This document shows positions 608-1,725 of a DNA stretch of 64,000 nucleotides, piece by piece. The first letter of the stretch is position 1. Every line of letters begins with the position of its first letter. The position numbers and the translations under genes were made by a program. Origin of the DNA: Candidatus Pacearchaeota archaeon. Its GTDB lineage: Archaea; Nanobdellota; Nanobdellia; Pacearchaeales; GW2011-AR1. The stretch spans positions 1-64,000 of the forward strand of contig JASFEO010000002.1 in assembly GCA_050124795.1 (NCBI GenBank). The letters are read 5' to 3'. Below the pieces are notes generated by a model, which saw only the letters and a program-made list of their open reading frames with translations, was not told the DNA's origin and ran no database searches.

Positions 608-1725
608 ATGAAAACCCACAATAATCTTTATCCAAAAATTATTTCAAAGAAAAATCTAATCCTTGCCTGGAGAAAGGCAAGAAAAGGCAAAACACAAAAA
701 CATTATGTAATTGAATTTGAAAAAGATTTACCTTTCAATATAAATAATCTTCATAAAGAACTGGTATCTTTGACATATTTTCCAAAACCTTTGAAAACAT
801 TTATCCTGCGAGACCCCAAAACACGCAAAATTTCAAAATCAGATTTTCGCGACAGAATTATTCATCATGCAATTAATAATATCCTTGAACCAATTTTCGA
901 AAAGGTTTTTATTTATAATAATTGCGCAAGCAGGAAAAATAAAGGAACTTTATTTGCATTAAAAAGATTTGAAAAATTCAGAAGAAAAATAACAAATAAT
1001 TTTACATCATATGGTTACTGCATAAAGGCAGACATTAAACATTATTTCGAGGAAGTTAATCACGAAATTTTGCTTGAAGTCTTGAAAAGAAAAATCAAGT
1101 GTGAAAAAACTATTTGGCTGTTCAGACGAGTAATCGAAAGGTCTGAGAGAGCGAACAAGTTCGTGGTAGAAGAGAGTAATTTTGATTCGTCTCTCTCTCT
1201 CTCTCTCTCTCTCTCTCTTCGTGCGGGCTTGAGAGTAAGACGCGGAGTTCTTCATTAACAGCTAAAGGTATGCCTTTAGGTAATTTAACCTCGCAATTCT
1301 TTGCAAATATTTATCTTAATGAACTTGACCAGTTTGTAAAGCACAAATTAAAAGCAAAATATTATATTCGATATGTTGATGATTTTATAATTCTGCATCA
1401 ATCAAAAGAGCAATTAAAGACTTGGAAAAAGGAAATTGAAAATTTTCTTAATGAGAAACTAAAGCTTGAACTTCATCCTGATAAATCAAAAATCATAAAT
1501 TTATCCCGCGGAATTGATTTTGTTGGTTTTAGGAATTTTTATTATCATAAGTTATTGAGAAAAAGAAATATAAAGAATATGCAGAGTAAAATAAATTTAT
1601 CTAACAGGGGAGAAATTTCTTATGAAAAATTATCTGAGTCTTTTGAAGGTTGGAGTGCTTATGCAAAATGGGGTTATTGTTATAAGTTAAGAAATAAATT
1701 GATTAAGAGTTTAACAATAAACTAA
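608..1725 (+). CDS. DGR reverse transcriptase, frameshifted at a (CT)14 tract (ORFs 608-1258 and 1270-1725)
   Basis: RDRIIHHA, KADIKHYF, GMPLGNLTSQFFANIYL, YIRYVDDF and GIDFVG motifs; removing one CT unit gives a single 371-aa frame. Confidence 0.9.
1191..1218 (+). repeat. (CT)14 microsatellite inside RT1
   Basis: Counted directly; the copy at 38210-38235 is (CT)13. Confidence 0.9.

Follow-up and report, generated by a model that had tools for sequence, protein, structure and literature searches.

A repeat tract in a DGR reverse transcriptase gene as a probable ON/OFF switch of hypermutation in a DPANN archaeon

The DGR locus and its two reverse transcriptase copies

The window, by which we mean the whole stretch of DNA analysed here, is the first 64 kb of contig C2 in a 1.06-Mb, 90%-complete genome of an uncultured DPANN archaeon. 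It holds two DGR cassettes and two copies of a reverse transcriptase (RT) gene, RT1 and RT2 (Table 1), and also carries secY and an aIF5A-type gene.

Table 1. Features of the two cassettes and RT copies, in window coordinates.
Feature	Position	Strand	Remark
DGR target gene 1, 3' end, cut by contig start; holds VR1 (about 120-204)	1..226	+	
GC-rich hairpin-like element after VR1; similar one after VR2 (about 43961-43985)	266..291	+	Cassette alignment, DNA fold
Non-coding spacer, 77% identical to 44052-44158 of cassette 2	364..473	+	Cassette alignment
Template repeat TR1; counterpart of VR1 and of another VR, located where contig C4 ends	496..586	+	
RT1, only full-length DGR reverse transcriptase gene of the assembly	608..1725	+	Frame lost at tract; no lesion elsewhere
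Expanded loop, 128 nt, between post-KADIK helix and GMPLG motif; 4 residues in BPP-1 bRT	1136..1263	+	
(TC)14 tract, a length that puts the gene out of frame; relatives carry this loop element inverted, as (GA)n	1190..1217	+	
RT2 remnant, lacking codons 1-64, TAG at 38686-38688	37818..38688	+	
(TC)13 tract, in-frame length, within RT2 remnant	38209..38234	+	
DGR target gene 2, 217 aa, VR2 at 43816-43896	43262..43915	+	
Template repeat TR2, RT absent beside it	44230..44310	+	

Mismatches between TRs and VRs were confined to TR adenines: 17 of 17 over 85 nt for TR1 and VR1, all 11 between TR1 and the VR on contig C4, and all 13 in 81 nt for TR2 and VR2. With pairs that differ at TR adenines only, and with the VR at the 3' end of its target gene, the element is, judged by its sequence, a real DGR. 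The same clean TR/VR pairs are the sole basis on which we infer that RT1 is active at present. Window positions 1-127 and the end of contig C4 carry the same 127 nt of target gene, followed by different VRs of TR1; target 1 is thus present in two copies, at the contig start and at the contig C4 end, one of them without a TR or RT beside it. The protein of target gene 2 had no Pfam or PDB sequence match.

A search for Avd (PF22296 and PF05635) gave no match in the 90%-complete genome. Avd is not required for DGR membership: in passages of Wu 2018 (PMC5758913), avd is reported in 74% of DGRs and as absent from architecture A, and the Avd-less architecture A1 is given as TR-RT. The spacers upstream of the two TRs (364-473 and 44052-44158) are candidates for the structured 5' part of an Avd-less DGR RNA, a role that is likely for 364-473. 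The element at 266-291 is presumably the target-recognition hairpin, an assignment made from general DGR knowledge. A promoter scan gave nothing above shuffles with a sigma-70 model, which is unsuited to archaea.

A whole-genome profile search for RTs returned only the two halves of RT1 and RT2. RT1 is split into open reading frames at 608-1258 (216 aa) and 1270-1725, each with an RVT_1 match, in agreement with a sequence-only reading of this DNA that had called the gene complete but out of frame at a (CT)14 run (1191-1218, the same run as the (TC)14 of Table 1). Its best PDB sequence match was 8UB7 (328 aa, E 6e-32), to which both halves align, GxPxG and YxDD motifs included, and the 4-residue link of 8UB7 (173-176) corresponds to a 42-residue loop in RT1 that bears the tract. 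The 8UB7 record itself reads 'reverse transcriptase'; we take it to be the Bordetella phage BPP-1 bRT. With RVT_1 in both halves, the 8UB7 match, YVDD present and the tract as the only interruption, RT1 is a DGR-class RT with intact motifs.

When RT1 was modelled with 10, 13 or 16 units it encoded 369-373 aa with YVDD (371 aa at 13 units), and every other unit number from 11 to 17 led to a stop at 206-218 aa. The tract had been placed upstream of YVDD, and at 14 units the frame indeed ends at 216 aa, before GMPLG and YVDD. The OFF product had been described as a non-catalytic fragment, which holds in part: GMPLG, YVDD and the thumb are lost, but the first catalytic Asp (KADIK) is retained. These residue roles are assigned from what is generally known of RTs and from the alignment with BPP-1 bRT. 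Unit number by itself sets the RT1 frame. This is the single-locus variation that passages of PMC11868660 name as a criterion for SSR phase-variable loci, together with reversibility and a rate high enough for variants to be detected when no selection is applied.

An AlphaFold model of the in-frame copy, built on a 72-row alignment, had a mean pLDDT of 78.6. Loop residues 132-151 fell below 50 and were flanked on both sides by confident regions. The ON form is plausible on this model, in which the core is predicted confidently on either side of a disordered insert. A 14-nt CT match was found in none of 100 shuffles of the window. Dinucleotide runs of at least 4 units in the 1.06-Mb genome numbered 104 with 4 units, 7 with 5 and 1 with 6, and then only the tracts of 13 and 14.

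RT2 is open across its (TC)13 tract, as had been claimed (SSLSLSLSLSSCGLES...KGMPLG in frame), but the suggestion that it is a working ON allele was rejected: it has no start codon, its first 64 codons are gone and it stops early. Homology begins abruptly at 37818, equivalent to RT1 base 799 (codon 65), and the TAG at 38686-38688 replaces a Trp of RT1. Between these ends, 37818-38291 equals RT1 799-1274, a shared stretch of 476 nt in which a one-unit change of the tract is the sole difference and substitutions number zero. Downstream the copies are about 83% identical, the 513 nt that follow the tract holding 88 differences, and their 3' parts gave pS 0.50 and pN 0.08. In the single sequencing run that contains the gene, the shared 476 nt are bounded on each side by a branch point of the contigs. 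This branching and the divergent 3' parts make it unlikely that RT2 is a pure assembly duplicate. RT2 appears to be a defunct paralog of old origin, with a central part that was recently homogenised with RT1. As a truncated remnant it is evidence that tract length varies, not an ON allele. A one-unit change unaccompanied by substitutions may reflect a high switching rate, which the shared stretch does no more than suggest. Three small open reading frames lie directly upstream of RT2 at 36835-37810; the two tested, 37080-37412 and 37421-37810, had no Pfam match.

Repeat tracts in related reverse transcriptases

To survey tracts in related RTs, we assembled 229 loci from GTDB genomes (the best 80 of 91, a further 29 and 119, and RT1), with 88 further matches outside the set. 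Removal of 9 loci without an anchor, 27 duplicates and 1 with N in the loop left 192. A tract was defined as 12 nt of a dinucleotide repeat or 8 G or C, limits that were chosen after viewing the first 80 loci. Tracts were present in 78 of the 192 distinct loci, RT1 included (36 AG, 2 TC, 38 G and 2 C), and lay in the same loop. The gene was out of frame in 63 of these 78 compared to 6 of 114 tract-free loci, and four of those 6 have shorter runs. A metagenome set drawn from the best 80 of 419 loci, 6 of them without a 3' half, added 59 new loci; 22 of 29 were out of frame with a tract and 2 of 30 without. Across both sets, 251 distinct related RTs, a G, C, AG or TC tract was found in 107, with frame loss in 85 of the 107 versus 8 of the 144 that were tract-free. 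Even short tracts of 6-8 AG or TC units were mostly out of frame (16/19). No tract was present in 30 distinct viral RTs, all of them remote, at 27-38% identity to RT1. The sequence-only reading had taken a lack of such tracts in homologs as the outcome that would tell against a switch; the survey it proposed, run here, found that same-loop tracts recur and go with frame loss.

The association between tract and frame loss was retained when kinship was controlled (13 independent pairs, median sign-test p 0.002). On a 169-row RT tree built without the loop, tract presence changed 41-43 times, compared to a mean of 54.5 after shuffling. Four tract types and this number of changes point to convergent origins of the tracts. 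RT1, L237 and L142 have TC loops whose sequence is the reverse complement of the AG-type loop. When 41 genomes were searched at the DNA level for close relatives with the same TC loop, the matches were all short.

Outside the loop, dinucleotide runs of at least 6 units were absent from 667,374 flank bases and 183,521 RT bases. G or C runs of at least 8 in the flanks and RT genes outside the loop numbered seven, six of which fell at a second site inside the RT. This second poly-G site (G9-G18) lies about 53 codons after KGMP, after YVDD, and was present in 8 of the 251 RTs (L004, L084, L119, L123, L129, L141, L238 and L248), none of which has a loop tract. Some of these genes read through the run and some break; in four of the 8 the match ends at the poly-G although ample DNA follows.

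In a scan that started from genomes, 19 of 151 from the same family contained (GA)8. Twenty-four long GA/TC tracts were examined, of which 10 lay in the RT loop (RT1 counted, RT2 not) and 14 elsewhere, indicating a background tendency of these genomes to form such tracts. Several of the long (GA)n tracts outside RT genes stand right before TTTAAA or TTATAA boxes (L356:584-605, L362:462-477, L364:1501-1517 and L383:1502-1522). This is the position of the purine-rich element of archaeal promoters, and promoter-level repeat switches are possible there. The ends of the tracts were also recurrent: a G-run was followed by CGAA in 34 of 52 cases, and most AG-runs by CGCG, TAAT, TAAC or TTAA. Similar cap-like words of the GCGAAGC type occur within the hairpins after VRs. 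One (GA)22 tract (L365:721-764, the same place as L344) has a CGCGG cap as in RT-loop tracts and no RT match nearby; it lies downstream of a two-gene pair that, judged from its open reading frames, resembles a nucleotidyltransferase/HEPN module.

State of the out-of-frame genes and competing explanations

To assess whether the out-of-frame genes show decay, we compared them with tract-free genes. Other lesions were absent from 57 of 62 scorable out-of-frame tract genes and from 92 of 100 tract-free in-frame genes, and YVDD was retained in 56 of 57 out-of-frame genes. TR/VR pairs adjoined 49 of 63 out-of-frame and 74 of 108 tract-free genes, with non-adenine TR/VR mismatches per site of 0.005 and 0.0045, respectively (p 0.59). 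Conserved columns downstream of the shift were kept at 0.953 in out-of-frame genes versus 0.942 (p 0.18). With no excess of decay past the shift, constraint on the untranslated half appears to equal that in open genes; by these sequence measures the OFF genes are not decaying.

Near-identical pairs showed both states. L279 and L281 carry (AG)9 OFF and (AG)10 ON, and over 3.6 kb differ otherwise only in two RT bases and a rewritten VR. L222 and L223 carry G12 OFF and G13 ON, with five RT bases and the VR also different. In both pairs the frame differs through the tract alone; their VR differences bear only indirectly on whether mutagenic retrohoming is ongoing. A third pair, L144 and L254, is distinguished by a single G plus three adjacent bases; the VR and 3.2 kb are otherwise identical, and both genes are OFF. 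This difference may be assembly noise and counts against over-reading single lengths. As regards reversible switching, near-clones occur in both states and OFF genes are undecayed, but neither a direction nor a reversal is visible in the pairs. Only 15 of the 78 tract genes in the GTDB set were in frame, and OFF therefore appears to be the usual state.

The predominance of OFF genes could also arise if the tract acted as a rheostat instead of a switch, with DNA that remains OFF and every cell making small amounts of full-length RT by slippage during transcription or ribosomal frameshifting on the tract. Roughly four fifths of tract-bearing genes have lost the frame but are intact, and the in-frame share lies below the one third expected by chance (p 0.008, kin not being independent). 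We nevertheless consider this explanation unlikely. For AG (14 and 17) and G (12 and 17), the common tract types, both out-of-frame phases occur, the tract is found in both orientations, as seen in the inverted TC loops and in C tracts alongside G, and DNA length itself varies between near-clones. Such phases, orientations and lengths are more than one would expect a tuned ribosomal signal to tolerate. RNA-polymerase slippage could still add to switching at the DNA level.

A slightly less probable explanation is that the tracts have no selected function, the loop being tolerant of insertions and subject to a local mutational bias that generates tracts, and each frameshift being a recent, one-way death of a DGR. 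The 14 of 24 long GA/TC tracts that arise elsewhere in these genomes would fit this, the common CGAA cap after G-runs (34/52) hints at one generating process, and RT2 is a true remnant. Over half of candidate DGRs were dropped as inactivated or incomplete, according to a passage of Wu 2018 (PMC5758913). However, decay in OFF genes is no greater than in intact ones, and the second site bears tracts only in RTs without a loop tract. Related tract-bearing loops are also kept among RTs that are about 65-75% identical, such as RT1 and L237, and because they persist it is hard to hold that a tract only kills its gene.

Assembly artefact ranks lower again, and we regard it as improbable: the true RT1 would have 13 units, the extra unit being a consensus error or a swap between copies sharing 476 nt. 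The shared segment is an assembly repeat, and the contigs of the sequencing run break at the tract. A search of runs located the gene in one DNA run (0.96 of sampled words), as contigs, and listed no RNA run with it; the contigs beside the tract, 420 and 84 nt long, fit 13 units as well as 14. For the stretch between RT1 and RT2 no contig was listed, to which we attach no weight. The L144/L254 pair suggests that G-run length can vary between assemblies of near-identical DNA. Against this explanation, the tracts of 6-8 AG or TC units are mostly out of frame too, and consensus errors should be rare in tracts that short; nor does an artefact explain why tracts exist at the loop. The first base that distinguishes the copies lies 57 nt past the tract (1275), so short reads can phase RT1 and RT2.

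That translation restarts at the ATG of MPLG (1270), where the second open reading frame begins, and the halves assemble into a working RT is hardly credible, as Met at this position is not commoner in tract-bearing (65/72) than in tract-free RTs (87/97) and a restart could not rescue the second tract site, located after YVDD. Slippage in the DNA is favoured over a ribosomal signal or a restart because both phases are used, loops occur as reverse complements and Met at GxP is not enriched.

A proposed contingency switch and its relation to known systems

We propose, with a probability of roughly 0.7, that the tract is a contingency switch on the DGR engine, in which slipped-strand changes of length would turn hypermutation ON and OFF heritably. 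Similar runs at the same spot in many relatives, with changing length, make the RT1 tract likely to be such a switch. The proposal of a phase-variable switch made in the sequence-only reading stands as regards recurrent loop tracts, frame loss, otherwise intact genes and the presence of both states; it does not stand as regards RT2, a remnant instead of an ON allele, or the OFF product, in which the first catalytic Asp is kept.

Under the proposed switch, ON/OFF changes through the tract are likely to be random and heritable. Replication slippage would often add or remove one unit, and with the tract in a length-tolerant loop such changes would alter the frame. A search for MutS and NucS gave no match in the 90%-complete (incomplete) assembly, an absence that would raise slippage rates. 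Most lineages would rest OFF and retain a working VR allele. In rare cells that turn ON, RT would be produced and TR adenines rewritten into the genome's three VRs before the tract slips back OFF, and only a subpopulation would hypermutate. With RT2 a remnant and TR2 lacking an adjacent RT, one tract would gate all three targets.

A broader interpretation, to which we give even odds, extends across a DPANN order. In its DGR RTs, contingency tracts would have arisen again and again within a single tolerant loop, and some lineages would have gained them at the second site instead. Hypermutation would rest OFF and burst in rare cells, a mutator switching a mutator, and the archaeon studied here would have one master switch for three variable proteins. 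On this interpretation, about a third of the group's working DGRs would have escaped surveys in which frameshifted RTs are thrown out.

Regulation of DGRs in nature is termed an open frontier in a passage of a 2026 paper (PMC12875486), and a repeat tract in the RT gene would be a concrete regulatory mechanism, visible in the sequence itself. Activity state would be predictable from tract length, which opens the switch to a test with deep metagenome reads that already exist. If the switch is real, it would explain how small-genome symbionts shield a useful VR allele from overwriting. DGR counts would also change, since a tract puts 85 of the 251 related RTs out of frame, and these would be filtered as pseudogenes. 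Archaea would join the organisms with sequence-level evidence for repeat-mediated phase variation. Priority is uncertain, as Paul 2017 may mention purine tracts in the RT genes of CPR and DPANN organisms. Among the titles and abstract openings covered by a literature search, none described repeat tracts within RT genes of DGRs, and a term search of main-text passages of PMC8867640, PMC8144416, PMC8632793, PMC4372165, PMC11661182, PMC6349945, PMC10053308, PMC5758913 and PMC12875486 located no such tract.

Compared to known DGRs of DPANN and CPR organisms, as described in passages of PMC4372165 and PMC5758913, the present element is similar in that target with VR, TR and RT run in the same direction, TR/VR differences are at adenines only, an Avd match is absent and targets are non-adjacent. 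It differs in that the RT1 gene is interrupted by a length-variable tract.

Both halves of RT1 align to BPP-1 bRT (8UB7) and share GxPxG and YxDD with it; the short link of that enzyme contrasts with the long tract-bearing loop of RT1. Phase variation through dinucleotide (CT)n tracts is exemplified by adhesin genes of Helicobacter pylori. Like bacterial SSR contingency loci, RT1 has a long perfect repeat within the coding region whose unit number sets the frame, the tract is unique in its genome and both states occur in near-identical strains. Unlike those loci, which switch a surface protein or methyltransferase, the switched gene here is the engine of another hypermutation system, the host is an uncultured DPANN archaeon, and four tract types and two sites are in use.
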